A stretch of 55,953 nucleotides of DNA. Origin: a virus (Duplodnaviria > Caudoviricetes). Location of the stretch: positions 1-55,953 of IMG/VR virus record IMGVR_UViG_3300009136_000007. One strand, 5' to 3'. Shown here piece after piece: positions 8,570 through 54,953 of this stretch; position 1 is the first letter of the stretch; the number at the start of each line of letters is the position of its first letter. The notes beneath the pieces were generated by a model. The model did no database searches. It had not been told where the DNA came from and was given only the letters and a program-made list of their open reading frames with translations. The position numbers and the translations under genes are program-made.

Positions 8570-10126
8570 ATGTCAGACAAAATTGTCAAAAACCTCAATT
8601 TTGGGGAAGACGCCAAGACAACGGTGTTTAAGGGAATAAAAAAGCTAACAAAAGCTGTTAGCTCTACTTTAGGGGCTAGTGGTAAATGCGTTATCTTAGA
8701 AGATGGTAGTGGTAAACCAGTTATCACCAAGGACGGTGTAACAGTTGCTGACTCAATAGTCTTGCTGGATCCTGTGGAAAACATGGGAGCAACTCTTCTA
8801 AAAGAAGCAGCTAGAAAAACAGTTAAAGAAGCTGGTGACGGAACAACTACAGCTACCGTACTTGCTCACTCAATACTTAAGCAAGCTTACAAACTAGACA
8901 AAGACTATAACAGCAGAGATTTAAAAAACGGTATTAACAACGCTGTTGAAAAAGTAGTCAAGTACTTAGAGAAAAACTCTATTCAAGTAACAGGTGATAT
9001 GATTGACTCTGTGGCTACTATATCAACAAACAACGATCCAGTTTTAGGTAAGGTTATTGGAGATGCTTTTAGGTCAGTAGGAGAGACCGGAGTGGTTATG
9101 ATGGAGCCAACTAATGAATCTGAGACTTATGTTGACGTTGTTGATGGTGTTCAATACGATAAAGGGTTAACAAATTCTAACTTTGTAACTAACAAATCAA
9201 CAAAAGAAGCTGTGCTTGATAATCCTTTAGTGTTACTAGTAGATTCACCTATTGAAAGTATTAGACAAATACAGTCAGTTCTTGAATATGTTATTAAAAA
9301 TACAAAGTCACTACTTATTGTTGCTGATATAGATCAACCGGTTTTATCAGCTTTAGCCATGAACAAGGTAAAGGGTAATATAAAAGTAAACGTTATTAAT
9401 GCGCCTACTTTTGGTATCAACAAAAAAGATACACTAACGGACTTATCTATGTTAACTGGAGCTACTGTCATCAACGAAGATCTTGGAGATGATTTAGATC
9501 TTATATCGGTAGACAAACTAGGAGAATGTGTTAGAAGTGTAACTGGTGAACAAGATACTATTATACAAATAAAAGAAACACCAGAGGAAGTAAATGAGCT
9601 TATTCGCAAAATTAAAGAACAGCTTGAGACTGAAAAATCTCCTGCAAATGTTATACGACTTGAAACTAGACTTGCACGTTTATCTGCTAAGGTTGCAATT
9701 GTCAAGGTTGGAGCGAACTCAGACATTGAACTTAAAGAAAAAACAGACAGAGTCGAAGACGCTATCTGCGCTACAAAAGCCGCAATCAAAGAAGGTATAA
9801 TCCCAGGAGGAGGTATTGCTCTGCTCAACGCGTCTACATATACAAAAGCTAAAAGCAAAGGTGAAGAAGTTTTACTAGAAGCTATAAAAGCTCCTTACGA
9901 AACTATTCTTTCCAATGCTGGTTTAGAATTAGTTTATCCTGACAAGAAAAATAGAGGGCTAAATGTGGTTACAGGAAAAGACGTAAATATGGTACGAGCT
10001 GGTATTATCGATCCATTACTGGTTACTAAGAGTGCTTTAAAGAACGCGGCTTCAGTAGCTACAACCATACTATCAACCGATTGTGTAATCAATAACTTAA
10101 GAGTAGGAGATGAAAGCAATAGGTAG
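8570..10126 (+). CDS. groEL: Chaperonin GroEL (phage-encoded)
   Basis: ITKDGVTVA, GDGTTT, PGGGIAL and GIIDP motifs; no GGM tail. Confidence 0.97.
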   Translation: MSDKIVKNLNFGEDAKTTVFKGIKKLTKAVSSTLGASGKCVILEDGSGKPVITKDGVTVADSIVLLDPVENMGATLLKEAARKTVKEAGDGTTTATVLAHSILKQAYKLDKDYNSRDLKNGINNAVEKVVKYLEKNSIQVTGDMIDSVATISTNNDPVLGKVIGDAFRSVGETGVVMMEPTNESETYVDVVDGVQYDKGLTNSNFVTNKSTKEAVLDNPLVLLVDSPIESIRQIQSVLEYVIKNTKSLLIVADIDQPVLSALAMNKVKGNIKVNVINAPTFGINKKDTLTDLSMLTGATVINEDLGDDLDLISVDKLGECVRSVTGEQDTIIQIKETPEEVNELIRKIKEQLETEKSPANVIRLETRLARLSAKVAIVKVGANSDIELKEKTDRVEDAICATKAAIKEGIIPGGGIALLNASTYTKAKSKGEEVLLEAIKAPYETILSNAGLELVYPDKKNRGLNVVTGKDVNMVRAGIIDPLLVTKSALKNAASVATTILSTDCVINNLRVGDESNR

Positions 10127-10370
10127 AAATTTAATTATAAAGAAAACAAAAGAAGGGACCACTAAAACTAAAGGTGGTCTACTTCTTGCTGAGTCACACA
10201 GAGAAGATATAAGGTATATAAAAGCTAGTGTAATTTCTATTGGAAGTGACGTGGTTGGCGTAAAAGAAAATGATGACATATTCTTTGATAGACACGCCGG
10301 TCACAAAATAGAAATAGGTAAAGAATCTTATCACGTTATTAAACTAGAAGATATAGTTGTTGTTTTATGA
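10110..10370 (+). CDS. groES: Co-chaperonin GroES
   Basis: KTKGGLLL mobile loop and C-terminal EDIVVVL; overlaps the 3' end of groEL. Confidence 0.92.
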   Translation: MKAIGRNLIIKKTKEGTTKTKGGLLLAESHREDIRYIKASVISIGSDVVGVKENDDIFFDRHAGHKIEIGKESYHVIKLEDIVVVL

Positions 10371-13235: not shown

Positions 13236-13462
13236 TGAACTCTGTAGTTAGAAAAATAAGTATAGGTTCTGATTACAAAAATGATGCAATGCATTACGCT
13301 GTAGGTCAGCAAGTTTACGGGGGTCATACTATATCGGCTATACTGTATTCTGAAGACGACAGCTCTTACAGCATATACATTAAAAAGAAAGACGAGGTAA
13401 TGCCATGGAAGAAGTTTAATTCTAACATGGCTATATCCGTTGAGTATGATCTAGAATATTAA
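13235..13462 (+). CDS. Hypothetical protein
   Basis: TAATG coupling on both sides. Confidence 0.75.
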   Translation: MNSVVRKISIGSDYKNDAMHYAVGQQVYGGHTISAILYSEDDSSYSIYIKKKDEVMPWKKFNSNMAISVEYDLEY

Positions 13463-14067
13463 TGAAAAGTTTATTTGACTTTATCGTAAAACCAATTAAT
13501 AAGAGGTACGATACAGAGGTTAAAGTAGGTGACAAAAGCCTAATAACTAACACTAATACTGAAGACTTTAAAGCCGTAAGTAATAAAGCGATAGTAGTTT
13601 CAACTCCTTCAGCTTATTCAACACCTATAAAAAAGGGTGACGTGGTCATTATACACCACAATGTTTTTAGAAGTTTTTTTGATATTAGAGGCAAACGTAA
13701 AGACAGTAGGTCTAAATTCATAGATGATTTATACTTTTGTTCGCCTGACCAAATATACTTATACAATAGTGACGACACTTGGAATTCTTTTCAAGACCGT
13801 TGCTTTGTAAAACCGCTGTTAGATAACAATGATCTAACGCTGGATAAAGAGAGAAAGCTTATAGGAATACTAAAATATGGTAATAGTTCCTTAGAAGCTC
13901 TTAAAATCGTTCCTGGTGACCTAATAGGTTATACTCCGTATGGTGAGTTTGAATTTGTGATTGATGGTGAACGATTATATTGTATGAAATCAAATGATAT
14001 TGCAATCAAATATGAATATAAAGGAGACGAAAAAGAATATAATCCTAGCTGGGCAAAAAGCGGTTGA
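13462..14067 (+). CDS. Tandem GroES-like co-chaperonin (two domains)
   Basis: Two repeats of F(I)VKP...GD(V/L)(V/I); the second ends EFVIDGERLYCMKSNDI like the GroES C-terminus. Confidence 0.65.
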   Translation: MKSLFDFIVKPINKRYDTEVKVGDKSLITNTNTEDFKAVSNKAIVVSTPSAYSTPIKKGDVVIIHHNVFRSFFDIRGKRKDSRSKFIDDLYFCSPDQIYLYNSDDTWNSFQDRCFVKPLLDNNDLTLDKERKLIGILKYGNSSLEALKIVPGDLIGYTPYGEFEFVIDGERLYCMKSNDIAIKYEYKGDEKEYNPSWAKSG

Positions 14068-33056: not shown

Positions 33057-36000
33057 ATGTTTGAATTAGAAGGTGAACAATACTCATTAGAGCAAGTAAC
33101 TTCAGCTGCAGATCAATCTAATATGCCTCTTGAAGATTATTTAAAAAAATATAATATTAAAGAGCTAGAGGAAACTGTAGAAACGGTGGAAAAGCCAAAA
33201 GATGTTGTGGAAAAGGATGCAACTGTAACATCGATAGAACCGGAGCAAGCATCCGAGAGTACGGAATTAGAGCAGGTAGATACTTCTTTGGTATCAGAAG
33301 ATCCTGAACCAGTTGTAAGAAGAGGTAGAGCTCAAGTAAGGCAAAAAGAACTCGCTAATAGAAAACAAGCAATAGAGCAAAAAAAGCGTGATGACTTAAT
33401 CGCAGCCGGTATAAAAGCTGAACAATACGAGGAAGCTAAAAAGAACGTAGATGAAACGTTAACTGATGCTGGCTCTAGTATATGGAGCTACTCCCCTGAG
33501 AATATTTCAAATTTATATTCTAAAACAACTGGAGAAGCTCTTGATTACCAAGCTATAGAAAGCATATCTCCAATAGGCTCCTCAATGTCTTATACAGGTG
33601 TTTTTAAGCCTTATGGTAGCTTTTTAACTGGTGGGTTTAGTTACTCTGACTTTGCTGATAACGAAAAAATAAAAGGCATATCTATATCTGAGTTGCAAAA
33701 GGCAGATCAAGCTAACGCTGCTTCTAGTGCTTTAGAAAGTATTTTTGAAGAACATGGAGACAAGTCTGATGAATTTGTTTTAAGTCAAGGACAAGTTATT
33801 TTAAAAGGAAAAGACAAAAAACTTCAAGAACTATACTCTTCTTTAAGAACTTCAAAACCAGAGAACAAGCAACAAATAATAAATGAAATAAAAAAAGTGA
33901 GAGAAGACAACTCGCAAGAGTTGTTTGATATAAATACTGGTAATTTAACTAAGTATGATAAACTGCCTGAAGAGTCTAAAAAACAGTATGACAATATAGT
34001 TGAAAAAGCAGAAGAAAAAGCTTCAACAACAGAAATAGATCAACTAAACAAAGAGCTAACAAATTCTTACTCAAATTTAGTAGGTATATCAAAAAGAATA
34101 TCTAGTTTTATAGATGAAAACGGAGAAGATGAGATAACTAAAAAATCACAAACGACGCCACAGTATTTAGTTAGCGCCGTTAAAGATTTTTTTGGATCTG
34201 AGGAAACTACATATGGAGACTTAAGCAGGGTTCAAGAGATATCTAGAACAGGTGTTCTACCAGAAAACGTAAGTAAAATAAGTGGCGAACATCCATTAGC
34301 TAAAGCGTATAATAAAGCCTTAGAAGAATACGCTATATTAAACAGAGCTGTACAAACAAACACTGATCCGCTTTCAGAAAAACAAGAAGGTTTTTGGGAG
34401 TCAGCTGGAGATGTTTTACTAGAAAAAATAGATATGACTGGTGGTGTTGCGGCGCCTAAGGTAAAAGCCACCGCTAATCAAATATTTGTTGAATCAGTTG
34501 AAAAGGCTGGTTTAGGTAGAATAAATCAAGAAGAGGTTGACGAAGCAGTTTCTCAGAACTGGAAAAGCGTAGTTGGTGGTGGAGCTGTAGATTTAACACT
34601 TTTTGTGGGTGAGGTAGCGTTATTCAAAGGCGGTACAGCTAACAAGATAAGTAAAGGTTTTAAGTACATAGAAAAAACATTTAAAGCTAGTGAAGCTGCA
34701 AAGTCTAGTAAGTTGCTTAGAAAAGCTGGGGACTTTGTTATAAAAGGTATGGATGAAGCTGCTGTTTTTACTGGTCTTGAATCAACGAAAACAAGTCTTG
34801 GCTTGTCCCAACAATCAACTAGAGAACAAGAATGGGCTACGGCTACTTTTGGTTTCGCTTTGGGTGGAGGTAACTCTTTAGGTTCAAGCATTCTTAGAGC
34901 CTTACCAGCTAAAACAATATTTTCACCTATAACAGCTCAATTATCTAAATCAGATCTAGCTAGAAGCGCCGGTAATAGGTTTGTCAACGCTAATGCCGGA
35001 GCGTTTTCTTTTGAGTTTGCTAGAGCTGCAACCGCTGCTTTAGGCGAAGACGAAGAAGGTTATTACGATAGAAACCCAGAAGAGTTTATTAAAGAGTATC
35101 TGGCTGAAGTAGCTAAAATGAGCTTGCTTGGAGCTAAATCTATATTTCACAAGAATGGTGTATATAGAGCCGCCCAAAGAGACATGCGTTTGTTAAACTT
35201 AAACCCTACGTATGTAAATAGAGCTGCTAAAAGAACCGGTATAGATTCTTCATCAATTAAAAAACCTGGTGAAGACACTATAGATCAAATAGACGCTGCT
35301 AGAGCTGACAAAATGTCTGATATAGATGCTAAGCTGAAAACACAGCAAATAACAGGAGAGCAAGCTAAAAAAGAGATAGAAGACGTTAATAAAGACTACA
35401 ATATATTAGAAGCGGAGGTCGAACTAAATTTAGCTAAAAAAAGGTTTGATGCTGAAAGTAAGAGCGCTTTAAAACCAACTGATGAAAGTGTAAGAATACT
35501 TATTCAGAAAATGAAAAAAGGTGATAAATTCAACGATAAAGATAACAACGCTTTAGTTAATACCCCTCTACCTATAATCTACGATAGAATGGGAATAGAC
35601 TCATCTAGTAAAAGTTTAGAAAATAGATGGAATAGAGAGTTTGCTATTGAAGACGTAATGAATAACAATACAGACTTCAAAGCGCCTTATGAGTCAAAAG
35701 AAAGAGCAGATTCTTATAAATTTCTCGATGAAATTTTTGAAATTGGAGGTCAAATACAGCTACTTAAAAAGACGAAAGACAGAAACGAAGCACAAGAAAA
35801 AGAGCTGCAACAGCTTGAAAAAGATTACAAAGTATATGAGCCAGGTGGTTATAAATATGACAAGCTTCAGGACAAGCTAGATCAACTATACTTAAAACAA
35901 AGGTTAGCAAGTAAAGCTCAAGCTGAAGACGTTTTAGGTGCTACGCAGGAAGGTGAATCAGTTTCTGTTAGATCTGCTGAGGATTTCCAGAAGAAGTATG

Positions 36001-39000
36001 AATCTATAAATAAAGACGGGCAAGATGTTAGATCTAGTGATGGTTTTTACGACGCTAAAAATAAAATTTTCTATGTAAACGAACAAGTTGTCGCAGCTAC
36101 TAGAAACACAACCGTTGAAAAACACGAGGTTGGTCATTTTGTATTAAGAGACTCTTTGAAAGATAAAACTGGTAAAGTCACAGATAAAGGTATAAAGGTT
36201 ATAGACGAAGTCTTAAGTGAACTAACTCCTAAGCAAAGAGAAACTGTACAAAAACGTATTGACGATTTTTATAGATATGACGAAAAAGAGATTAACTCTC
36301 TTAGATCTAAACTAAAATCAGCACTTACCGAAGGAAACGCTGAAGAAGCAGAAAGTATAGTTGAAGAAATTGAAAAACTAGAATCTAAACCAAAGAAGGA
36401 AAAAAATAAAAAAGATTACTACGAAGAGTATCTTACTGTGCTATCGGACGCTATAAACGAAAAACAAATAGTATTTAAAGAAAACGTAGGTAACGCTTTT
36501 GAAAAGTTTGTTCCTTTTCTTAGAAAAAGGATGCCAGAACTAGAACTAAATGCTGATACTGGTAAAAATCTATTCGAGCTAATTAAAAGTTATTCTAAAG
36601 GCGAAAAACCTGGTATAGAAGCAGCTAAACAAATGTCTATAGCGGCAGAAGGTAAAGACACTAGCGGTCAAAAAGTTAGTAAATCTACATCTGTAGATTC
36701 TATAGAAAGAAAGTTAGAAGAGCTAGAAGATAAGTATTTTGATCAAGAAATAGATGAGTACCAGTTTGAGCAACAAAGAGATAAACTAGAAAAAGATCTT
36801 GTTAAAGCTGAAGAAGCTACTAAACTAGCTAAAGAAGTTAAGGCTGAGCTAGTAGAAACAGAAACTAAACCAGTAGAGAAAGCTGAAAATGTAGAAAAAG
36901 TAGTAAAAGAGGCTACCACAAAAGTTTTTGAAGCTAAAGAAGTTTCTGACAAAAATAAACAAATAGCAAGAACTAACGATGACATCGTTCAAGAGATGGC
37001 TGATTTGGGAGCTAATAGAATATCAGAAATAAAAGACCCTAAAGCTAAAAAAGCTATAGTTGACAAGTTAGGTGAAAACAATATTGGAGCTGTCACTGAG
37101 CTAGCTAAAAAAGCAGCTGCAACCAGTAGAGATCTACCTATAGACGATAACTTAAAAGTTAACTACGAAGAATTCTTTTTAGGTTTTAGTGAAGAGTTGT
37201 CTGCGCTTATAAACTCCTACAAAGCTAACGTTGACGGCAAGAAAGTTCCTTTTGGAGCTTATATGAACCAAAACCTTAGACTTAGATACGGTAGTATATT
37301 AAACAGGTCTCTAAAAGGTAAGCTTAAAGGTTCTGAAAGCTTGTCTAGCGATAAGAACATAAAAAAAGAGGTTGGATCATTTGTTGAAGAGTCTTCAAGT
37401 GAATCCACTGGTAGAGACGAAGGTAGAGTACTAGAGCAGATAGACGTCAGAAAGTTTGGACCAGCTAAAGATAAAGTTAACGAGATATCTGACATAGTCA
37501 CAGTTGAAGAAGGAAAGAGACCTACATACAAAGAGTTAACTGAGGAGTTTATAGAACCAGTGTCTGTAGAGTTATTCGACGTGCCTGGTAGAAAAATACA
37601 AGGTAAAGCTACTTTAACTGACACTGAAGCTAAGTCTTTGCAAAGATTATTTGTTAGTCCTGACAACGTTAGAAAACTTATAAAAACAATGCCTCCTTAC
37701 AACGTAGCAGGTAGTGAAACTACCATTGGCGAACGAGCAGAGAGTATTGATGTTTCTAAAGACACTAAAGGTAAGTCTATAGGTTTATCCAACAAGTTTA
37801 TAAAACAGTTCTATCAACCAGTCACTAGAGCTATACCTGGTGTCTCTAGCCCGAAAGGTAGAAGTTTAGGTGCTACGAGTCAAGGGCAAGTATACGAGCT
37901 TAAACCAGAGTTTAGAGGTAGAGTATCTAACGAAGCTGTAAAGCAAATTCAGAACAGCGTAGGTGTAACAGAAGCTGGTGTACCTAACGAAAAAATATCC
38001 GCAGCTAACAGAACCAAGTACGGCACCACTTTAACAGGTTTTGCTAAGACTTATATAGCTAATGTCATAAATGTGACAGGTAGATCTAAACAAACTAGCA
38101 AGCAAGAACAAGCAGATACTGGCGCTGGTAAAGCTAGTATTATGTTTAGTAAAACTGCTGAATCAAATGAAGAGTTTTCTAAAAAGTTTAAGTCTAAAGA
38201 AGTTAAGAAACTAGTCGAAGGTAAGTTTGAAAATCTTATAGCAAAAGCAAAGCTACCAGATACAGTAGCGCAGGAGATTAAAAACTTGATAAAAAGTGAG
38301 GATTTAAAACCTATAGAAATGTTTCAGGTTGTTTCAGATATAGCTTCACGGGACTTAAGTTTTACTGCTAAAAGAAGTTTTCAAGAAGGATTAATAACTG
38401 ATTTAATTAAAGCTGAAGGAGGAGACTTTGGATCTGTTCTAGTTCAAAACTTAGGACAAGTTAGAAGAATATTTAAAAAAGAATACGAAGCTATAGGCTT
38501 TGGTACAGAAGTATCACAATTAAAAAAGTCCATAAAAGGTGATAATAAAGAGGTTAGAGACGCTAAAGTTCTTGACTGGTTATTATCGGTATCTAGATCT
38601 GTTAGATCAAGTAGTAATAAGAGTTTATTATACGTTTCTACCAATAAAAAATTATTCGACGCAGAATTGAAAGGTATTCTTGGAAAAGATTCTGACTTTG
38701 AAGCGGTTCAAAAAAAGTTACCTTCTGGAAAAGTAGTATCTTTTATAAAATATAAAGGAAAAGGATTAGAGGGTTTTCAAGATATTACTGAATTAAAATC
38801 TAAAGGTTTTAGAGTTTATGGCGAAAAAGTTTCTGAGCAAGCTGATAAAGCTAGAGAACTTGCTTTAAACAAAATAGATTCACTTAAAGAAAGACTTAAT
38901 AAAAAAGAGATAACTAAGGGTCAGTATGATTCTATGGTTGACTCTTACTTGAGTTTAGTAAGTTTGGATCAAAAAGGTTTAATAAGAAAGATGTCTAAGC

Positions 39001-41378
39001 CAAATGGTGAAATAATAGACGGCTACAGAGCTACTGAACTATACTTGGAGCACAAGATGTCTGCTCAAGAAATAAAAGAGCTATTATCGTCTTACGCTGA
39101 AGGTAAAGTAGAGAAACAAGAAGTACTAGATATTTTAGAGAAAGAAGCATTAGTGAATATAATGCCAAAAGTTTTAGAGAAAAAAATACCTAATTTCGCA
39201 GCAGAAAGAGCAAAAAACCCTAACTACAAAAACTCAGAAGGTTACGAGAGTAAAGAGTATTTAGATGCTTTAGAGCAATATAAACCACTTATCAAAGACA
39301 TGGACGGTAACAGTGTTATGTTTAGTAAGACTCAAAAAGAAGAAAAAGCTAAAAGCTTAGATAGAGCATTTAATGATATTATAGAAAATAAAACAGGTAT
39401 ACCTAGTAAAAAAAGATTTGGTATAGTTGAAGCTACAACTAAAGGCGCTGGTCAAGGTAGACTTAACTTCATTATACCGCCTTCGCAAGAGGACTTTGTC
39501 GGTTTATTATACACCACTCTTGGTAAAAAAGAAGTTGGTGATAGTCAAATGCAATGGTACAAGGACAATTTAATAACTCCTTACGCTAAAGCCATGAACA
39601 AGCTTAGTAAAGCTCGGGTATACATGCTTAACAACTACAAGACGCTTAAAAATCAACTCAATGTAGTTCCTAAAGATCTAGCTAAAAAAGTAGAGGGAAC
39701 TGACTACACTAAAGAAATGGCTGTTAGAGTTTATATATGGAATAAACAAAAAATGGAAGTTCCAGGTATAAGCAAGTCAGACGTTAAAAAATTAAGCAAC
39801 TTCGTTGTAGAAAATGAAAACTTGCAAACTTTTGGTGATCAATTAATAAATCTACAATTAGGCGATGGTTATGTTAAACCAAAAGAAGGTTGGGCAGCTG
39901 GAACTATAACTACGGATATACTTGAAGGTTTAAACACCACAAAAAGATCTAAATATTTAAAAAATTGGCAAGAAAATGCAGACGCTATATTTAGTGAAGA
40001 TAATATGAATAAGTTGCAAGCTGCTTACGGTTTAAACTACGTAAAAGCTATGAAAAACATGCTAGGTAGAATGAAGTCTGGTAGAAACAGAAACTTTCCA
40101 GGTGATAGCGCTACTGGTCGATTCACTGATTGGGTTACAGGTAGTGTTGGTGTTACGATGTTTCTTAACACTAGATCAGCTGTGCTACAAACAATATCTG
40201 CCATAAATTTTATTAATCTTCAAGACAACAATATTTTAGCCGCTGGTAAAGCTTTTGCTAACCAAAAACAGTACTGGAAAGATTTTAGTACGTTAATGAA
40301 TTCAGACTTCTTAAAAGAAAGACGTGGAGGATTACGTATTAATGTCAGCGAGGCAGATATTGCTGATATGGCTAAGAAAGATGGCGCCAAGGGAGCTATA
40401 AGTAAATTACTGCAATTAGGTTTTGCACCTACTCAAATAGCTGATAGTTTCGCTATTGCTTCTGGTGGAGCAAGTTTCTATAGAAACAGGATTAATACTT
40501 ATAAAAAACAAGGTTTATCAGACAAGGAAGCTGAGAAAAAAGCTTTTGAAGATTTTAGAGAAACAGCTGAAGAATCGCAACAGTCTTCTAGAGCCGACAG
40601 AATATCTATGCAGCAAGCTAGTCCAGTAGGAAGATTTGTGTTAGCTTTTGCAAACACCCCAGCTCAATATGCTAGAATAATTAAAAAAGCTGCTAGTGAT
40701 CTTAAAAACGGCCGAGGAGATGCTAAAACTAATATATCTAAGATAATCTATTACGGAGCAGCGCAAAACATACTTTTTAACGCTTTGCAGCAAGCTTTAT
40801 TCGCTACAGCTCTTAGTGATGAAGAGCCTGGAGATGAAGAAAAGGAAAAAAAGTATTTAGGTATTGCTAATGGAATGATGGATTCTTTACTTCGAGGTAC
40901 TGGTATTGGCGGTTCTGTAGTTTCAGTTGGTAAAAACGCTGTTATTAAACTACTTAAAGAGTTGAAGAAAGATAGACCTAAAATGCAAAATGTTGCTTCT
41001 GAATTATTGAAGATATCACCTCCAGTTTCAGGTAAGTATTCAAGACTTGTTCAAGCTGGTAAATCATATGATTGGAATAAGGATGAAATGAGAGAAAAAG
41101 GCTTAAGCTTAGATAACCCCGCTTATTTAGCTAGCGGTAAAGTTATTTCCGCTTTAACAAACATACCTTTAGATAGAGCTATTAAAAAAGCTAACAACGT
41201 TGTTCAAGCTACTACTCAGGATTTAGAAGCTTGGGAACGTATAGCTTTACTAGGTGGTTGGTCTGATTGGGAGCTAGGTATTAAAAAAGATAAAAAAGAT
41301 AAATCTAAATCAAATAAAACTGTAAGAAAATCAGGAGTAATTAGAAAAAAGGTAATAAGAAAAAAAGTAGTAAAGTAA
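33057..41378 (+). CDS. Giant internal virion/ejection polyvalent protein (2773 aa) with zincin peptidase and sigma70 region-2-like domains
   Basis: GFYD...HEVGH...EE zincin; ENNIGAVTELAKK...VPFGAYMNQNLR sigma-like segment; KVSKS, MFSKT and MFSKT linkers; helical, membrane-prone C-terminal region. Confidence 0.8.
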   Translation: MFELEGEQYSLEQVTSAADQSNMPLEDYLKKYNIKELEETVETVEKPKDVVEKDATVTSIEPEQASESTELEQVDTSLVSEDPEPVVRRGRAQVRQKELANRKQAIEQKKRDDLIAAGIKAEQYEEAKKNVDETLTDAGSSIWSYSPENISNLYSKTTGEALDYQAIESISPIGSSMSYTGVFKPYGSFLTGGFSYSDFADNEKIKGISISELQKADQANAASSALESIFEEHGDKSDEFVLSQGQVILKGKDKKLQELYSSLRTSKPENKQQIINEIKKVREDNSQELFDINTGNLTKYDKLPEESKKQYDNIVEKAEEKASTTEIDQLNKELTNSYSNLVGISKRISSFIDENGEDEITKKSQTTPQYLVSAVKDFFGSEETTYGDLSRVQEISRTGVLPENVSKISGEHPLAKAYNKALEEYAILNRAVQTNTDPLSEKQEGFWESAGDVLLEKIDMTGGVAAPKVKATANQIFVESVEKAGLGRINQEEVDEAVSQNWKSVVGGGAVDLTLFVGEVALFKGGTANKISKGFKYIEKTFKASEAAKSSKLLRKAGDFVIKGMDEAAVFTGLESTKTSLGLSQQSTREQEWATATFGFALGGGNSLGSSILRALPAKTIFSPITAQLSKSDLARSAGNRFVNANAGAFSFEFARAATAALGEDEEGYYDRNPEEFIKEYLAEVAKMSLLGAKSIFHKNGVYRAAQRDMRLLNLNPTYVNRAAKRTGIDSSSIKKPGEDTIDQIDAARADKMSDIDAKLKTQQITGEQAKKEIEDVNKDYNILEAEVELNLAKKRFDAESKSALKPTDESVRILIQKMKKGDKFNDKDNNALVNTPLPIIYDRMGIDSSSKSLENRWNREFAIEDVMNNNTDFKAPYESKERADSYKFLDEIFEIGGQIQLLKKTKDRNEAQEKELQQLEKDYKVYEPGGYKYDKLQDKLDQLYLKQRLASKAQAEDVLGATQEGESVSVRSAEDFQKKYESINKDGQDVRSSDGFYDAKNKIFYVNEQVVAATRNTTVEKHEVGHFVLRDSLKDKTGKVTDKGIKVIDEVLSELTPKQRETVQKRIDDFYRYDEKEINSLRSKLKSALTEGNAEEAESIVEEIEKLESKPKKEKNKKDYYEEYLTVLSDAINEKQIVFKENVGNAFEKFVPFLRKRMPELELNADTGKNLFELIKSYSKGEKPGIEAAKQMSIAAEGKDTSGQKVSKSTSVDSIERKLEELEDKYFDQEIDEYQFEQQRDKLEKDLVKAEEATKLAKEVKAELVETETKPVEKAENVEKVVKEATTKVFEAKEVSDKNKQIARTNDDIVQEMADLGANRISEIKDPKAKKAIVDKLGENNIGAVTELAKKAAATSRDLPIDDNLKVNYEEFFLGFSEELSALINSYKANVDGKKVPFGAYMNQNLRLRYGSILNRSLKGKLKGSESLSSDKNIKKEVGSFVEESSSESTGRDEGRVLEQIDVRKFGPAKDKVNEISDIVTVEEGKRPTYKELTEEFIEPVSVELFDVPGRKIQGKATLTDTEAKSLQRLFVSPDNVRKLIKTMPPYNVAGSETTIGERAESIDVSKDTKGKSIGLSNKFIKQFYQPVTRAIPGVSSPKGRSLGATSQGQVYELKPEFRGRVSNEAVKQIQNSVGVTEAGVPNEKISAANRTKYGTTLTGFAKTYIANVINVTGRSKQTSKQEQADTGAGKASIMFSKTAESNEEFSKKFKSKEVKKLVEGKFENLIAKAKLPDTVAQEIKNLIKSEDLKPIEMFQVVSDIASRDLSFTAKRSFQEGLITDLIKAEGGDFGSVLVQNLGQVRRIFKKEYEAIGFGTEVSQLKKSIKGDNKEVRDAKVLDWLLSVSRSVRSSSNKSLLYVSTNKKLFDAELKGILGKDSDFEAVQKKLPSGKVVSFIKYKGKGLEGFQDITELKSKGFRVYGEKVSEQADKARELALNKIDSLKERLNKKEITKGQYDSMVDSYLSLVSLDQKGLIRKMSKPNGEIIDGYRATELYLEHKMSAQEIKELLSSYAEGKVEKQEVLDILEKEALVNIMPKVLEKKIPNFAAERAKNPNYKNSEGYESKEYLDALEQYKPLIKDMDGNSVMFSKTQKEEKAKSLDRAFNDIIENKTGIPSKKRFGIVEATTKGAGQGRLNFIIPPSQEDFVGLLYTTLGKKEVGDSQMQWYKDNLITPYAKAMNKLSKARVYMLNNYKTLKNQLNVVPKDLAKKVEGTDYTKEMAVRVYIWNKQKMEVPGISKSDVKKLSNFVVENENLQTFGDQLINLQLGDGYVKPKEGWAAGTITTDILEGLNTTKRSKYLKNWQENADAIFSEDNMNKLQAAYGLNYVKAMKNMLGRMKSGRNRNFPGDSATGRFTDWVTGSVGVTMFLNTRSAVLQTISAINFINLQDNNILAAGKAFANQKQYWKDFSTLMNSDFLKERRGGLRINVSEADIADMAKKDGAKGAISKLLQLGFAPTQIADSFAIASGGASFYRNRINTYKKQGLSDKEAEKKAFEDFRETAEESQQSSRADRISMQQASPVGRFVLAFANTPAQYARIIKKAASDLKNGRGDAKTNISKIIYYGAAQNILFNALQQALFATALSDEEPGDEEKEKKYLGIANGMMDSLLRGTGIGGSVVSVGKNAVIKLLKELKKDRPKMQNVASELLKISPPVSGKYSRLVQAGKSYDWNKDEMREKGLSLDNPAYLASGKVISALTNIPLDRAIKKANNVVQATTQDLEAWERIALLGGWSDWELGIKKDKKDKSKSNKTVRKSGVIRKKVIRKKVVK

Positions 41379-46196: not shown

Positions 46197-46624
46197 TCTT
46201 TTTGGTTTTGTGGTTTGTACAGTGTTGTGTTTGGAAACTGTCTCATTACTAATTGTTTAAATAGCTTCCAGCGCATAGGGAAAGATTCATTAGCTCTACC
46301 TTTTGTTTCTATTATAAAATCCTCACCGATAAAATCCGGTGTATACTTTATAGGTAGTATACGTTTGCAGCCTCTGTTCTTATATTCACCTTTTCCGTTT
46401 GACTGTCTCTCATAAACCTCGTTTTCAAAATGAAAGCCGTTAAGCAATACAAAAGTTTCTCCTTCGTATTTAGATTTAATCTTAGCTTTTTTTAGAGCCA
46501 TATACATATACTTCTCTAGGCCAGACGCAAAGTTAATACCATCATATGATACCTTCTTTGCTTGTACTGGTCCTTTCTTTTTAGATCTTCGTTTCTTAAA
46601 CATAACCTTTTTATTTATCTCCAC
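46151..46624 (-). CDS. PD-(D/E)XK endonuclease, T7 endonuclease I-like resolvase
   Basis: FASGLE...YE...YTPDF...IIETKG. Confidence 0.85.
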   Translation of the reverse strand: MEINKKVMFKKRRSKKKGPVQAKKVSYDGINFASGLEKYMYMALKKAKIKSKYEGETFVLLNGFHFENEVYERQSNGKGEYKNRGCKRILPIKYTPDFIGEDFIIETKGRANESFPMRWKLFKQLVMRQFPNTTLYKPQNQKECDETVRLILSKQRD

Positions 46625-46997
46625 CTAATATGATGTCACCTGGGTACATCCTCTGTGGCTTAGAATAATGTTTACCTGTGTTACCATTTTGTGCGATAAC
46701 TTTCATTCGTTCTTCATCTTCTTCAAAAGCATGTGCATTACAAGGAGCTACTGGTTCTGAACGTTTAAGCATAGCTTCTTCAATCTCATCAGATAAACAA
46801 CGTTTAGCAGCTTCAATATAAAGCAAAGCATCCATCAACTCTTCTTGAACATCAACAAGAAAACGATTAAGATCTTTTTCCTGGCCTTCAATCTCTTCCA
46901 TCATTGTGGCACCATATTTTTCTTGACCAATTAAACTACGTTGATCCATTTTCTTTAATACAGCTAATACAATTTCATCTTTAGTGTCTATTCTCAT
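46611..46997 (-). CDS. Putative all-alpha NTP pyrophosphatase (MazG-like)
   Basis: GQEKYG and QEELMDALLY (EExxD) motifs. Confidence 0.55.
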   Translation of the reverse strand: MRIDTKDEIVLAVLKKMDQRSLIGQEKYGATMMEEIEGQEKDLNRFLVDVQEELMDALLYIEAAKRCLSDEIEEAMLKRSEPVAPCNAHAFEEDEERMKVIAQNGNTGKHYSKPQRMYPGDIILGGDK

Positions 46998-47767
46998 TTT
47001 AAATTTCTTTTAATAAACGTTCCATTTTTCATTGATCCTTTTCTATCTTTGATCTCATCGTAAGCGCTTGTTATACAGTCTTCTACTTTCATCTGCTCTA
47101 AGTGAGCTAGATTAGTTACAACGACTATAATATCGCCAATAGCATCTTTGATCTCTGCTTTATCGTTCTTGAGTATACCTTGAGCAAGCTCACCTACCTC
47201 TTCAACCAGTTTAGCAAACTGCGTTTTAGAATCACCAGAATTGTATATTCCACGAACTTGAGCCCAGTCTCTTATTAAGTCAAAGACATTTACTTCATTA
47301 GGCTCGTAAAAGCTTTTTTGTTTATCAACATTTAACTCCATTAGCTTTTTGTTATATACAAAACACCTGTTATTGTTAAACATAGAAGTTACAGCGTTTT
47401 TATATACCTCTTTGTAGTTCTCTTTAGTTAATTCGAACTCACCGAAAGTTGTCTTCCATTTAAAACCTATAGCGTCCTCAAGACGATCTTTTAGTTTTTT
47501 TAACGGCATTGGAAACGTAGTTGTTTGGTCTGTTATATTTATCTTCATTTCATTAGATTTAATTAAATTTTTATAGCTTTGTCTGTCAACTTTGTAGCCG
47601 TAAGACTTTTGAAGTTCTATTTCCATGTTAGATACCTTGTCGATATCGTCGCTAGTAAGTAGAACTTCGTATTCGTCTGGAGCATAACCTTGTTGCTCCG
47701 TAACCCTGCTATTAAGATTACGTGTTACACCTATCTTTTTACCTGGTATGTGATATAAATAATACAT
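46994..47767 (-). CDS. Fusion of a GIY-YIG-like N-terminal domain and a MazG-like pyrophosphatase
   Basis: YYLYH...KIGVT..L..R...E at the N-terminus; KLVEEVGEL...EIKDAIGD...AYDEIKDRKG at the C-terminus. Confidence 0.8.
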   Translation of the reverse strand: MYYLYHIPGKKIGVTRNLNSRVTEQQGYAPDEYEVLLTSDDIDKVSNMEIELQKSYGYKVDRQSYKNLIKSNEMKINITDQTTTFPMPLKKLKDRLEDAIGFKWKTTFGEFELTKENYKEVYKNAVTSMFNNNRCFVYNKKLMELNVDKQKSFYEPNEVNVFDLIRDWAQVRGIYNSGDSKTQFAKLVEEVGELAQGILKNDKAEIKDAIGDIIVVVTNLAHLEQMKVEDCITSAYDEIKDRKGSMKNGTFIKRNLK

Positions 47768-47769
47768 AG

Positions 47770-48420
47770 TTAAATTTTATCGTTATACAAATGTAGATTA
47801 TGTGCGTGATGATAATACCAACCCGTCTCAATAGACAGCCTGTCTGCAACCATTTGTTGCAATGATGCAAACTGATACTGATCATTACAGAAACCGTACC
47901 AGAGATCATTAGAACGCATATAAACAGACATACAGAGTTTGTTATCTACAATGCTAAATTGAACTGCATATGTACACGGAGTATCGTATGTGTATTTATG
48001 ATGTTCTTTAGCATCGTATATACTTATAGCTGCATGTCTTGTGTCTGGGTTTTCCCTCAGTTTATTTACTACATACTCTAATTGATGATCTCTTTGCCAT
48101 TGATAACCATAGTTAGAATTAACTTCACCGTGCTTATCCGCCATACGTTTCCATATAGGAGGTATACTGCCGTTTAATTCACCCAGCTTGCTAATATTAG
48201 GATCACCAGATAAATACCAAGCCCATTCAGCTGCAGCATATTTTTGATTCCATTTTCTATACCTAGCTTTTATCTGTTTGTCAGATGGGTTGTGGATATA
48301 AAACCCTACGTTAAACAAAGCTTTAGTGTTATCAAAATCTACTCCTTTATTTTTGATCTTGATATACATATAATCAAAAGCCTCACTCGCTGTTTTAAAA
48401 TTACTTTTTGTGCTTATCAT
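47770..48420 (-). CDS. Thymidylate synthase-family enzyme, dCMP hydroxymethylase-like
   Basis: GEVNSNYG, DTPCT and MRSNDLWYGFCND, with Asp at the dUMP/dCMP specificity position. Confidence 0.85.
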   Translation of the reverse strand: MISTKSNFKTASEAFDYMYIKIKNKGVDFDNTKALFNVGFYIHNPSDKQIKARYRKWNQKYAAAEWAWYLSGDPNISKLGELNGSIPPIWKRMADKHGEVNSNYGYQWQRDHQLEYVVNKLRENPDTRHAAISIYDAKEHHKYTYDTPCTYAVQFSIVDNKLCMSVYMRSNDLWYGFCNDQYQFASLQQMVADRLSIETGWYYHHAHNLHLYNDKI

Positions 48421-53353: not shown

Positions 53354-53480
53354 AATTAACTGGTAAGTTATTAATAATATCTTGTTCTAGTTTTTCTACT
53401 TTATTTATCAAGTATGTGTTATCTGATTGTACTACTTTTAATATAGTTTTTATTTCCTCTATTCTTTCTAAAGTAGTCAT
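53340..53480 (-). CDS. Hypothetical 46-aa protein (not in ORF track)
   Basis: MTTLERIEEIKTILKVV...; overlaps both neighbours as in coupled operons. Confidence 0.5.
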   Translation of the reverse strand: MTTLERIEEIKTILKVVQSDNTYLINKVEKLEQDIINNLPVNYEEI

Positions 53481-54097
53481 AGTTGCTGATTTAAAAGTTC
53501 TTTTTCTTTCTTAAGTTCATTACTCATGTTTCTATGTATTGTTCTAGCCGAGCAACTAAGTAAATTAGCTAGTCTAGTTATTGTTATTTTTTTACCTAAT
53601 TCATTAATATCTAACATGCATTGATATATATCATCTTCATGTATCTTTTTACTTTTACCGACCATAGCTCCAACTATAATCATTTTTTCCTTGGTAGATA
53701 AACCGCTACCATCTCTGAATATTATTTTTCTTAATTTATTCTTTGGTGGTTGTTCTAAATCTAACATGCTAACCTCATAAACTATACTATTTAAACTATG
53801 TTTATTAATAGTAAAAGTTACAAAGCCAGAGATCTTGTTACAGATATGTTTAGCTAAATCATTAAAGCCGTCAGGATCTAGCTGAGGGTTTAAATACCAT
53901 AAAACCAATAGATGCCATTTTAAACTACGGTATGTAGTTATTTTAGCTTTACTCCTAAACAACTCGTAACATTGATAAGTCCCATCTACGTAGTAACTAC
54001 CCCAAGAATAAACTTCAGTAGGTTTATCTGTTGTAGGACTACGTCTGTAGACTATCTTTCTTCGATGTAAGTATTCTAGGTTTCTTATGTGTGACAT
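53477..54097 (-). CDS. Rep/initiator-like protein (PriCT-like helical domain plus C-terminal HTH)
   Basis: KITITRLANLLSCSARTIHRNM is a clear HTH; the central helical segment is reminiscent of PriCT-1. Confidence 0.55.
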   Translation of the reverse strand: MSHIRNLEYLHRRKIVYRRSPTTDKPTEVYSWGSYYVDGTYQCYELFRSKAKITTYRSLKWHLLVLWYLNPQLDPDGFNDLAKHICNKISGFVTFTINKHSLNSIVYEVSMLDLEQPPKNKLRKIIFRDGSGLSTKEKMIIVGAMVGKSKKIHEDDIYQCMLDINELGKKITITRLANLLSCSARTIHRNMSNELKKEKELLNQQL

Positions 54098-54249: not shown

Positions 54250-54471
54250 TCAAAATGTTATTAGTTTTAATCTTCTATTATATTTAGTTAAAAGCTTTGC
54301 TTTTACCTCTATGTTACCGCTTATGATAGTTATATTCTTGTTGTAACTATATTCGCTTCTTAAAGACGCGTTAACTATCTCGTTATGTAGAGACGTTATT
54401 CTGCTGCTCAGAAACTCTACGTGGTTTGCTTTTCTTTTTTTGTGTTTGTACCTTTGTATTAACCTTTGCAT
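54250..54471 (-). CDS. Basic hypothetical protein
   Basis: ORF within the early operon. Confidence 0.6.
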   Translation of the reverse strand: MQRLIQRYKHKKRKANHVEFLSSRITSLHNEIVNASLRSEYSYNKNITIISGNIEVKAKLLTKYNRRLKLITF

Positions 54472-54953
54472 AATTCGTTGATGTTAGATGGACGTATAAT
54501 TTTCTGCTCATTTTTGTTTCTTATGTTTTGTTTTTCTTGTTCGTAATAATTCCAGTAAGCTAACAGGCTATTGTCACTTACTTTGTACTCTTCAGGCATA
54601 CACTGTGGTGGTTCTGTAAAACCGTTATCAGGCATACCAACAGGCGGTTTAGCCAATGCTTCACGACATTTTTCAATACTCATATGATACTTATTGTATC
54701 TAACTGTGTATTCTTTGCCGATAGCAAGCATGTGCTCATATAACCAGTTGTAATGATGTATACTTTCCCGCACCCAAATTGTAGACGGATGGTTTAGATG
54801 TGCTTTTTTATAAGGTACATTATCTCCATTGTCATATGCGTGATGCGCCGTGCAAAGCATTTGAGCACATTCTAAGATCATTTTGACTTTGTGTTTGTCA
54901 TAGAAGTAGCTAGCAGCTTTAACTGGGTTTGGGTGTAGGTAAAATATATTCAT
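54459..54953 (-). CDS. Pyrimidine dimer DNA glycosylase / endonuclease V family protein
   Basis: MNIFYL...DKHKVKMILECAQML...HLNHPSTIW...EY..RY.K.H...PQCMP. Confidence 0.85.
   Translation of the reverse strand: MNIFYLHPNPVKAASYFYDKHKVKMILECAQMLCTAHHAYDNGDNVPYKKAHLNHPSTIWVRESIHHYNWLYEHMLAIGKEYTVRYNKYHMSIEKCREALAKPPVGMPDNGFTEPPQCMPEEYKVSDNSLLAYWNYYEQEKQNIRNKNEQKIIRPSNINELCKG

Follow-up and report, generated by a model that had tools for sequence, protein, structure and literature searches.

Within a viral sequence of 55,953 bases, IMG/VR record IMGVR_UViG_3300009136_000007 (hereafter the window; it is the whole record, with a completeness rating of 87%), we describe a three-gene module that we read, with moderate confidence, as a T4-type pre-replicative cytosine-replacement pathway cut down to two core enzymes. 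These are a 216-residue member of the thymidylate synthase family, predicted to make 5-hydroxymethyl-deoxycytidine monophosphate (5hm-dCMP), and a 257-residue protein with a MazG pyrophosphohydrolase domain; the third gene encodes a protein of 128 residues. An initial annotation had placed a probable cytosine-modification module at 46611..48420 and had expected the enzyme gene to be annotated as thyA. The three open reading frames (ORFs) were found exactly there, tightly packed on the minus strand, and the automatic names assigned by JGI do call the gene thymidylate synthase.

The 216-residue enzyme matched Pfam PF00303 (Thymidylat_synt) at 1.9e-28 (99.8 bits against a cut-off of 24.3), with residues 54-215 on profile positions 47-214 of 266, and it matched PHROG 'thymidylate synthase' families (phrog_160 at 4.5e-41). 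Its best matches to solved structures were nearly tied between MilA (8.8e-20), a thymidylate synthase (1.3e-19), T4 gp42 (1.4e-17) and Escherichia coli ThyA (1.6e-17). All NCBIfam ThyA equivalog models scored below their cut-offs (at most 80.2 bits against 108-427; 80.2 against 327 for the best model). As the initial annotation had claimed, MRSNDLWYGFCND aligns with QRSCDVFLGLPFN of E. coli ThyA, with Asp at the Asn177 position; it also aligns with MRSNDVVFGFRND of T4 gp42. In the HMMER alignments and in a MAFFT alignment of the window enzyme, E. coli ThyA, T4 gp42 and the homologue of Pseudomonas phage PaMx11, Asp180 shares a column with ThyA Asn177 and gp42 Asp179, and this column holds Asp in gp42 and Asn in both ThyA and PaMx11. 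The PaMx11 gene is named thymidylate synthase in its record, and its homologue in related phage records is named deoxyuridylate hydroxymethyltransferase. The two gp42-like motifs named in the initial annotation were also present: GEVNSNYG resembles GEINSNYG of gp42, and D-TPCT-AVQ resembles D-FMCT-TVQ. The key residues of the enzyme are E65, S102-x-Y104, R128, D146-x-x-C149, R169, S170, D172, D180, H210 and Y212, among which C149, E65, Y104, R169, S170, R128, H210 and Y212 are the counterparts of the catalytic ThyA residues Cys146, Glu58 and Tyr94 and of the nucleotide-binding Arg166, Ser167, Arg126, His207 and Tyr209, respectively. The ThyA His147 site is Thr (T150), and the ThyA Leu143 site is D146, three residues before the catalytic Cys149. 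Only 4 residues follow the HLY motif, compared to 55 in ThyA and 28 in gp42, and the C-terminal tail of ThyA is absent. Thus, the window enzyme shows none of the canonical ThyA features Asn177, Leu143, His147 and C-terminal tail.

Published residue rules for this family allow its substrate and product to be predicted. Cytosine enzymes are reported to have Asp where uracil enzymes have Asn, and deoxyribose enzymes to have Arg and Ser where MilA, which acts on cytidine monophosphate (CMP), has Lys133 and Ala176 (Zhao et al., 2016). These two MilA residues align with R128 and S170 of the window enzyme; it therefore lacks the residues for ribose preference, and a deoxyribose substrate is expected. 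Hydroxymethylases are described as having Asp or Glu three residues ahead of the catalytic Cys, at the ThyA Leu143 site, together with a Ser-x-Tyr pair, and as lacking the C-terminal tail that in ThyA seals the site for hydride transfer (Park et al., 2019). Homologues that make 5-hydroxy-deoxycytidine monophosphate (5-hydroxy-dCMP) carry Asn at the Asp169 position (Lee et al., 2026); D172 is kept there in the window enzyme, and the absence of this D169N mark argues against that type. Among contigs of metavirome DNA after selection, the modified were best told apart from the unmodified by positions 177 and 147, with Asp177 dominating the former and Asn177 the latter (Yang et al., 2021, eLife). 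The window enzyme shares Asp177 with deoxycytidine monophosphate (dCMP) methyltransferases like that of Xanthomonas phage Xp12 and lacks their hydrophobic residue at the 143 site, as judged by the published site rule and not by alignment with an Xp12 sequence. By these rules, the 216-residue protein is predicted to be a 5hm-dCMP synthase with every published sequence signature of the gp42 type, and it would be neither ThyA nor an enzyme for deoxyuridine monophosphate (dUMP), CMP or 5-hydroxy-dCMP nor, by the Leu143 rule, a dCMP methylase.

We examined conservation of these residues in 200 close relatives (the top 120 database proteins and 80 viral loci, drawn from 483 related viral contigs that came from one scan and are mostly about 58-72 kb) and in the 116 nearest 50%-identity cluster representatives of at least 190 residues; the other 34 of 150 representatives listed were excluded as shorter fragments. 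D180 was kept in 199/200 close relatives and 116/116 cluster representatives, so Asp at the 177 position is not a chance occurrence. The D146-T-P-C149 and S102-N-Y104 signature was kept in all 200 relatives, and the other signature, catalytic and nucleotide-binding residues each in 199-200. Asp at the 169 position was found in 200/200 relatives and 116/116 representatives, and Asp at the 143 site in 113 of the 116 representatives. Furthermore, the full signature, including Asp at the 143 site, was present in 80/80 more distant short homologues. These findings support the earlier proposal that the enzyme is a ThyA/gp42 family member of the Asp type, directed at cytosine; that proposal had named 5-hydroxymethylcytosine (5hmC), 5-methylcytosine (5mC) or another C5-modified cytosine as the outcome, and of these options the residue signatures narrow the product to 5hm-dCMP.

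The short length of the enzyme is real, since the top 120 homologues span 201-236 residues and 195/200 family members end 4-5 residues past HLY. A split or interrupted ThyA was ruled out by this conserved length, by the conserved end after HLY and by the downstream ORFs, which are conserved proteins themselves. Phylogeny with ThyA and gp42, which had been suggested as a check, placed the window enzyme apart from ThyA in a short Asp-type clade of its own: in a quick maximum-likelihood tree of 128 rows it fell in a 27-row clade with a support of 98, and 26 of the 27 rows were no longer than 240 residues. T4 gp42 and the enzyme of Enterococcus phage VPE25 lay in other Asp-type clades, and E. coli ThyA and PaMx11 lay elsewhere on long branches. 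The 27-row clade includes one of two homologues from Bacteroides phage BF486P2. Both homologues of this phage (L001:5156-5917) are of the Asp type, and the longer one has Leu for the catalytic Glu58 and branches very deeply by length in the tree, so it may serve another function or be without one.

Features of the module and their positions in the window
Feature	Position	Strand	Basis
Short thymidylate-synthase-fold enzyme, 216 aa, predicted 5-hydroxymethyl-dCMP synthase (dCMP hydroxymethylase)	47770..48420	-	PF00303, phrog_160, solved-structure matches, residue mapping, tree
N-terminal ~155 residues of the 257-aa ORF: T5orf172/GIY-YIG-like unit (1-70) and conserved alpha/beta domain (80-150)	47303..47767	-	weak profile score, conserved residues, Atlas neighbours
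MazG domain (nucleotide pyrophosphohydrolase) at residues ~156-257 of the 257-aa ORF; proposed dCTP (possibly dUTP) pyrophosphatase	46994..47302	-	PF03819, phrog_715, model, structural matches
Conserved helical-hairpin protein, 128 aa	46611..46997	-	74/80 related loci, invariant residues, model

The initial annotation had stated that two MazG-like proteins follow the enzyme. This was confirmed for the 257-residue ORF and not for the 128-residue ORF, which gave no family or specific fold match. In the 257-residue protein, PF03819 was matched at 5e-08 (33.5 bits against a cut-off of 22) and phrog_715 at 1.5e-29. In its AlphaFold model, with a mean predicted local distance difference test score (pLDDT) of 84 and values above 90 over the MazG part, a beta-beta-alpha-beta-alpha unit spans residues 1-70, an alpha/beta domain residues 80-150 and a four-helix domain residues 156-257. 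The four-helix domain matched 1vmg with Z 9.4 (root-mean-square deviation, rmsd, 2.6 over 81 residues), the cyanophage S-2L structure 7ody with Z 8.9 and mouse RS21-C6 (DCTPP1) with Z 8.2, and Foldseek gave a probability of 1.0 for MazG structures. E189, E190, E193, D208 and D212, which we take to be the MazG metal-binding residues, were invariant in 47 relatives of the 257-residue protein. For residues 1-70, the T5orf172 profile scored E 0.002 and 19.0 bits, just below the cut-off of 20, and the secondary structure fits; the invariant residues of the N-terminal part in the alignment of relatives include Y2, Y5, H6, K10-G13, T15, R21 and E49. The Atlas neighbours of this part are viral T5orf172 and T5orf172+MazG proteins, one of which meets the bar for the T5orf172 name. 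The N-terminal part gave no solved-structure match, although it was not queried on its own. In hhalign comparisons, the 257-residue family showed no significant similarity to T4 EndoII (DenA; probability 0.6%) or to T4 gp56.

The start of the 128-residue ORF overlaps the MazG stop by 4 bases. Conservation of this protein is limited to its first ~85 residues, with R20, S21, G24, K27-G29, E35, K41, D49, Q51-E53, D56 and Y60 invariant in the family, and its model consists of two long helices (pLDDT 67). As a second MazG it found nothing in Pfam, PHROGs or NCBIfam, and a link to MazG is neither shown nor excluded. Its profile picked out only DCTPP1 among solved structures, through a QEELMDALLY-like motif at a non-significant E of 1.8. 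In addition, hhalign of the family gave a probability of 0.7% against the MazG alignment and was also negative against T4 gp56, while Foldseek and VIA-align on the model returned generic helical hairpins only (Z at most 6.7) and the Atlas no named family.

To assess gene linkage, counts were taken at short Asp-type loci only, with no background rate of MazG beside Asn-type thymidylate synthases. Of the 80 related loci, 77 encode the 257-residue protein, 74 the 128-residue protein and 75 the product of the gene that follows (DUF1064), and the order enzyme, MazG, 128-residue protein was kept. A second scan, for which more distant enzymes of the short Asp type were aligned, gave another 80 loci, 60 of them less than 58% identical to the window enzyme and falling into 21 clusters. 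A Pfam MazG domain lay within 2.6 kb in 17 of the 21 distant cluster representatives (ORFs of at least 93 residues were searched), and a hidden Markov model of the window MazG domain found the same subfamily within 4 kb in 49/80 distant loci (E at most 1e-41). In 27/80, a dUTPase-family gene was found within 4 kb instead of MazG, and 4/80 had neither; two of these four are truncated, at about 0.4 and 1.2 kb beyond the enzyme. At one distant locus, the short enzyme stands beside MazG and a T4-type DNA alpha-glucosyltransferase (PF11440, 1.9e-15; L164:1536-2741). The enzyme is thus tightly and recurrently linked to a MazG pyrophosphatase that could remove deoxycytidine triphosphate (dCTP), as had been suggested earlier, and could also supply dCMP.

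Other genes were also observed around the short enzymes. S-adenosylmethionine (SAM) methyltransferases occurred in 5 and pyridoxal phosphate (PLP)-dependent enzymes in 7 of the distant cluster representatives. In L098, L100, L111, L115, L131, L136 and L155, the short enzyme is preceded at a distance of about 1-3 kb by a PLP-dependent-enzyme (PALP) homologue, with MazG nearby, and most of these loci also hold two further ORFs of ~300 residues without a family; these and the PALP genes are candidate cytosine hypermodification genes. At L152:1654-2904, a 5-hmdU DNA kinase helical domain (2.5e-48) was found beside a short Asp-type enzyme, an odd pairing for a cytosine-directed enzyme. A dCMP deaminase gene was present in 7/80 related loci and stood immediately upstream of the short enzyme in 6/21 distant representatives (L116, L157, L101, L124, L131 and L164); by analogy with some metavirome deaminases, the modified nucleotide may be a substrate of this upstream enzyme. 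A gene for an ATP-dependent DNA ligase (PF01068 and PF14743) was found in 44/80 related loci (L006-L085) and not in the window. The related contig G001 is 71.5 kb long, was assembled with 3,965 bases of terminal overlap and has a completeness rating of 100%. It has the window gene set and this ligase (61745-62590), and from its gene order the ligase would lie just past the 3' end of the window.

In the pathway that we propose, the MazG domain of the 257-residue protein would first hydrolyse dCTP to dCMP and pyrophosphate, which would deplete the canonical precursor and supply the substrate of the second enzyme. Judging from the residue signatures, Cys149 of the 216-residue enzyme would then attack C6 of dCMP, a methylene group would be taken from 5,10-methylene-tetrahydrofolate, and Asp146 would activate water so that 5hm-dCMP and tetrahydrofolate are released. 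In the last and weakest step, phosphorylation of the product to its triphosphate would fall to host kinases, and its incorporation to the replicative polymerase of the host; this reliance on the host is proposed because no deoxynucleoside monophosphate (dNMP) kinase or DNA polymerase encoded by the phage was found. The absence of a phage polymerase calls for that of the host and, if 5hmC reaches the DNA, a host or unrecognised kinase is needed as well. The expected outcome is phage DNA with 5hmC, apparently unglycosylated. Taken together, the residue rules and the gene linkage give good support to this interpretation, narrowed to 5hm-dCMP, and the phage DNA probably contains a modified cytosine.

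Several observations weigh against this reading. The scans of the window matched no dNMP kinase, DNA polymerase or glycosyltransferase family, as the initial annotation had noted for the kinase and the glycosyltransferase. The same three were not found when those ORFs of the early/nucleotide region of G001 that have no window counterpart were scanned with PHROGs (the corresponding ORFs of the structural region were left out). Among kinase candidates, P-loop motifs occurred only in the primase-helicase and in structural, family-less or otherwise assigned ORFs (endolysin, Erf), and the conserved 206-residue ORF at 53477-54097 had no family match. The lack of any phage dNMP kinase is the main gap, since published expression assays drive such bases into DNA by adding one (Lee et al., 2026; bioRxiv 2024.12.05.627091). 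ThyA R21, which binds phosphate, has no counterpart in the window enzyme, and R127 is replaced by His. MazG proteins ~50% identical to this subfamily occur in many phages that are not known to have modified DNA, such as those of Paenibacillus and Staphylococcus; MazG is therefore not diagnostic of modified DNA, and dCTP as its substrate is inferred. Finally, the enzyme is the sole PF00303 (thymidylate-synthase-family) gene of a phage with ~35% G+C, and its gene shares an operon with NrdA and NrdB, so the phage has its own ribonucleotide reductase; this context also fits supply of deoxythymidine monophosphate.

Three other explanations were weighed against the hydroxymethylase pathway. In the first, which we regard as improbable, 5hm-dCMP is only an intermediate that is deaminated to 5-hydroxymethyl-dUMP, or the base is decorated in the DNA by proteins of unknown family, and the final base is not plain 5hmC. 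The initial annotation had likewise suggested that the final base might be unusual, and we found nothing pointing to one. Distant loci do carry candidate tailoring genes (the L152 kinase domain, the L164 alpha-glucosyltransferase, the SAM methyltransferases and the PLP-dependent enzymes), many ORFs of the window have no family, and some metavirome deaminases turn 5-hydroxymethyldeoxycytidine nucleotides into 5-hydroxymethyldeoxyuridine (bioRxiv 2024.12.05.627091). However, no tailoring family was found in the window or in the scanned G001 ORFs.

The second explanation, which we regard as about equally improbable, is a dCMP methyltransferase of the Xp12 type, which would make 5-methyl-dCMP and DNA with 5mC, with some deoxythymidine triphosphate (dTTP) perhaps coming from the deaminated methylated nucleotide. 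Asp at the Asn177 position is common to dCMP methylases, and N177D/N229D ThyA mutants methylate dCMP (cited in Yang et al., 2021). Moreover, 5 of 7 deaminase-linked metavirome homologues tested made 5-methyl-dCMP (bioRxiv 2024.12.05.627091), and the dCMP deaminase genes of the related and distant loci fit such a route. Against it, the Leu143 site, which in published work splits hydroxymethyl from methyl products, is Asp in the window enzyme and in 80/80 distant homologues, and the enzyme lacks the C-terminal tail with which ThyA closes its site for hydride transfer. Scans of the window and of the G001 ORFs matched no dihydrofolate reductase family, and the window itself is without a deaminase.

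Least probable of all is a working thymidylate synthase or dUMP enzyme that boosts dTTP for an A+T-rich genome, with MazG in house-cleaning or in removal of deoxyuridine triphosphate and with canonical DNA: the gene content and G+C given above, the name 'thymidylate synthase' that the family bears in its sources and the occurrence of this MazG subfamily in phages not known to be modified are in its favour, but Asn177 is replaced by Asp in 199/200 family members, as in most modified metavirome contigs, His147, Leu143 and the C-terminal tail are all absent, the NCBIfam equivalogs fall far below cut-off, and the clade with a support of 98 excludes both E. coli ThyA and the Asn-type dUMP enzyme of PaMx11.

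Comparison with known systems places the proposed hydroxymethylase pathway close to that of T4 (gp42, gp56, gp1 and glucosyltransferases). The window enzyme belongs to the same family as gp42 and has the same signature (Cys, Asp177, Asp at Cys-3, Ser-x-Tyr, Asp169, Arg and Ser), and in both phages the enzyme is paired with a deoxynucleoside triphosphate (dNTP) pyrophosphatase. In contrast to T4, the enzyme is ~31% identical to gp42, has 216 rather than 246 residues and falls in a short clade apart from it; a MazG domain fused to a T5orf172-like region, with no detectable similarity to gp56, takes the place of the pyrophosphatase; and neither the window nor the scanned G001 ORFs showed a dNMP kinase, a glucosyltransferase or a DNA polymerase of the phage's own. 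Phage VPE25 also encodes an Asp-type homologue, which is 36% identical and shares the signature, and an adjoining dNTP pyrophosphatase gene. Its enzyme, however, has 281 residues, its partner has a dUTPase fold instead of MazG, and a beta-glucosyltransferase gene then follows, of which none was found in the window. By experiment, VPE25 DNA is modified at cytosine: neither bisulfite nor the enzymes EcoRI and MspI act on it readily, and PvuRts1I cuts it (Duerkop et al., 2016). The 5-hydroxy-dCMP synthases RB69 gp48 and DLP3 gp80 are of the same family, with Asp177 and an acidic residue at the Leu143 site, but their diagnostic D169N is absent here, where Asp172 is matched by Asp in the 200 relatives and 116 representatives.

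Metavirome contigs studied with MetaGPA share PF00303 with Asp177 and a residue other than His at 147, MazG/PRA-PH, and the ligase and deaminase found in 44/80 and 7/80 of our related loci (eLife 2021; bioRxiv 2024.12.05.627091). In those studies, PF00303 with Asp177, PRA-PH (MazG-like), dCMP deaminase and DNA ligase domains are linked to cytosine-modified contigs, with PF01068 and PF14743 among the ligase domains tied to modified DNA (eLife 2021), and one published sample was coastal (Yang et al., 2021). Unlike in the present analysis, the domains are treated statistically there, and the main-text passages, supplements aside, contain no short 213-223-residue clade, T5orf172-MazG fusion or phage lineage of this kind. 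The MazG-like pyrophosphohydrolase of cyanophage S-2L (7ody, bound to deoxyguanosine diphosphate) resembles the window MazG domain over 93 residues with an rmsd of 2.7, although it handles purines, not pyrimidines, and its partner enzyme is unrelated. The S-2L enzyme supplies the monophosphate for a base-modifying enzyme, in a pathway that, too, is not known to have a dedicated phage kinase. The gene of this enzyme is part of a phage gene triad that replaces a canonical base (with 2-aminoadenine) (PDB 7ody).

The window is most likely from a podophage of marine Flavobacteriia, because its large terminase matched 87 named phage records, from Flavobacterium (68), Cellulophaga (15), Tenacibaculum (2), Maribacter (1) and an uncultured podovirus (1), the last with 63% identity. 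Megablast of the region against named phages gave no close DNA relative. The enzyme, MazG and NrdB were not found in Flavobacterium phage elemoA and in MW202828.1, which share the terminase; these are weak absences from two protein searches without a positive control. The plus strand carries a structural and lysis block, with terminase, portal and GroEL/GroES homologues, and the minus strand a replication and nucleotide block; primase-helicase, Erf, exonuclease, a probable single-stranded DNA-binding protein and a sigma factor are present in the window and G001. In the structural block, a 2,773-residue ORF (33057-41378, plus strand) has no PHROG and no meaningful Pfam match, and its 3,020-residue G001 counterpart is 45% identical. 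The chaperonin genes (plus strand, 8570-10126, 10110-10370 and 13462-14067) encode homologues of GroEL (phrog_5725, 8.2e-136) and GroES, together with a second protein matching a 'co-chaperonin GroES' PHROG. In addition, a 164-residue ORF (54459-54953, minus strand) matched pyrimidine dimer DNA glycosylase (PF03013, 5.8e-07), which suggests phage-borne UV repair.

A fuller account, which we consider unlikely in its entirety, would have an abundant marine lineage of Flavobacteriia-type podophages replace cytosine with bare 5hmC through a minimal kit of a tail-less 216-residue hydroxymethylase and a MazG protein with a GIY-YIG-like (T5orf172) region, without a dNMP kinase, DNA polymerase or glycosyltransferase from the phage and co-opting host kinases and the host replisome, with the nuclease-like region and the 128-residue protein discriminating against cytosine DNA or substituting for missing steps. 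Modules of this kind are known from T4 and from metavirome work, and the one reported here adds an unusually small example from a lineage of uncultured marine phages; a literature search, which did not extend to the metavirome supplements, found no paper on such a module in Flavobacteria phages. Since genes of the short clade are routinely named thymidylate synthase, their annotation should be corrected. If the proposed hydroxymethylase pathway is correct, a widespread uncultured group of marine phages (483 related contigs) has DNA containing 5hmC, which would affect evasion of host restriction, modification-aware sequencing and the preparation of libraries with enzymes. In that case, the short clade would be the smallest natural scaffold for dCMP hydroxymethylation, and the missing phage dNMP kinase would show that the host can supply the kinase step.

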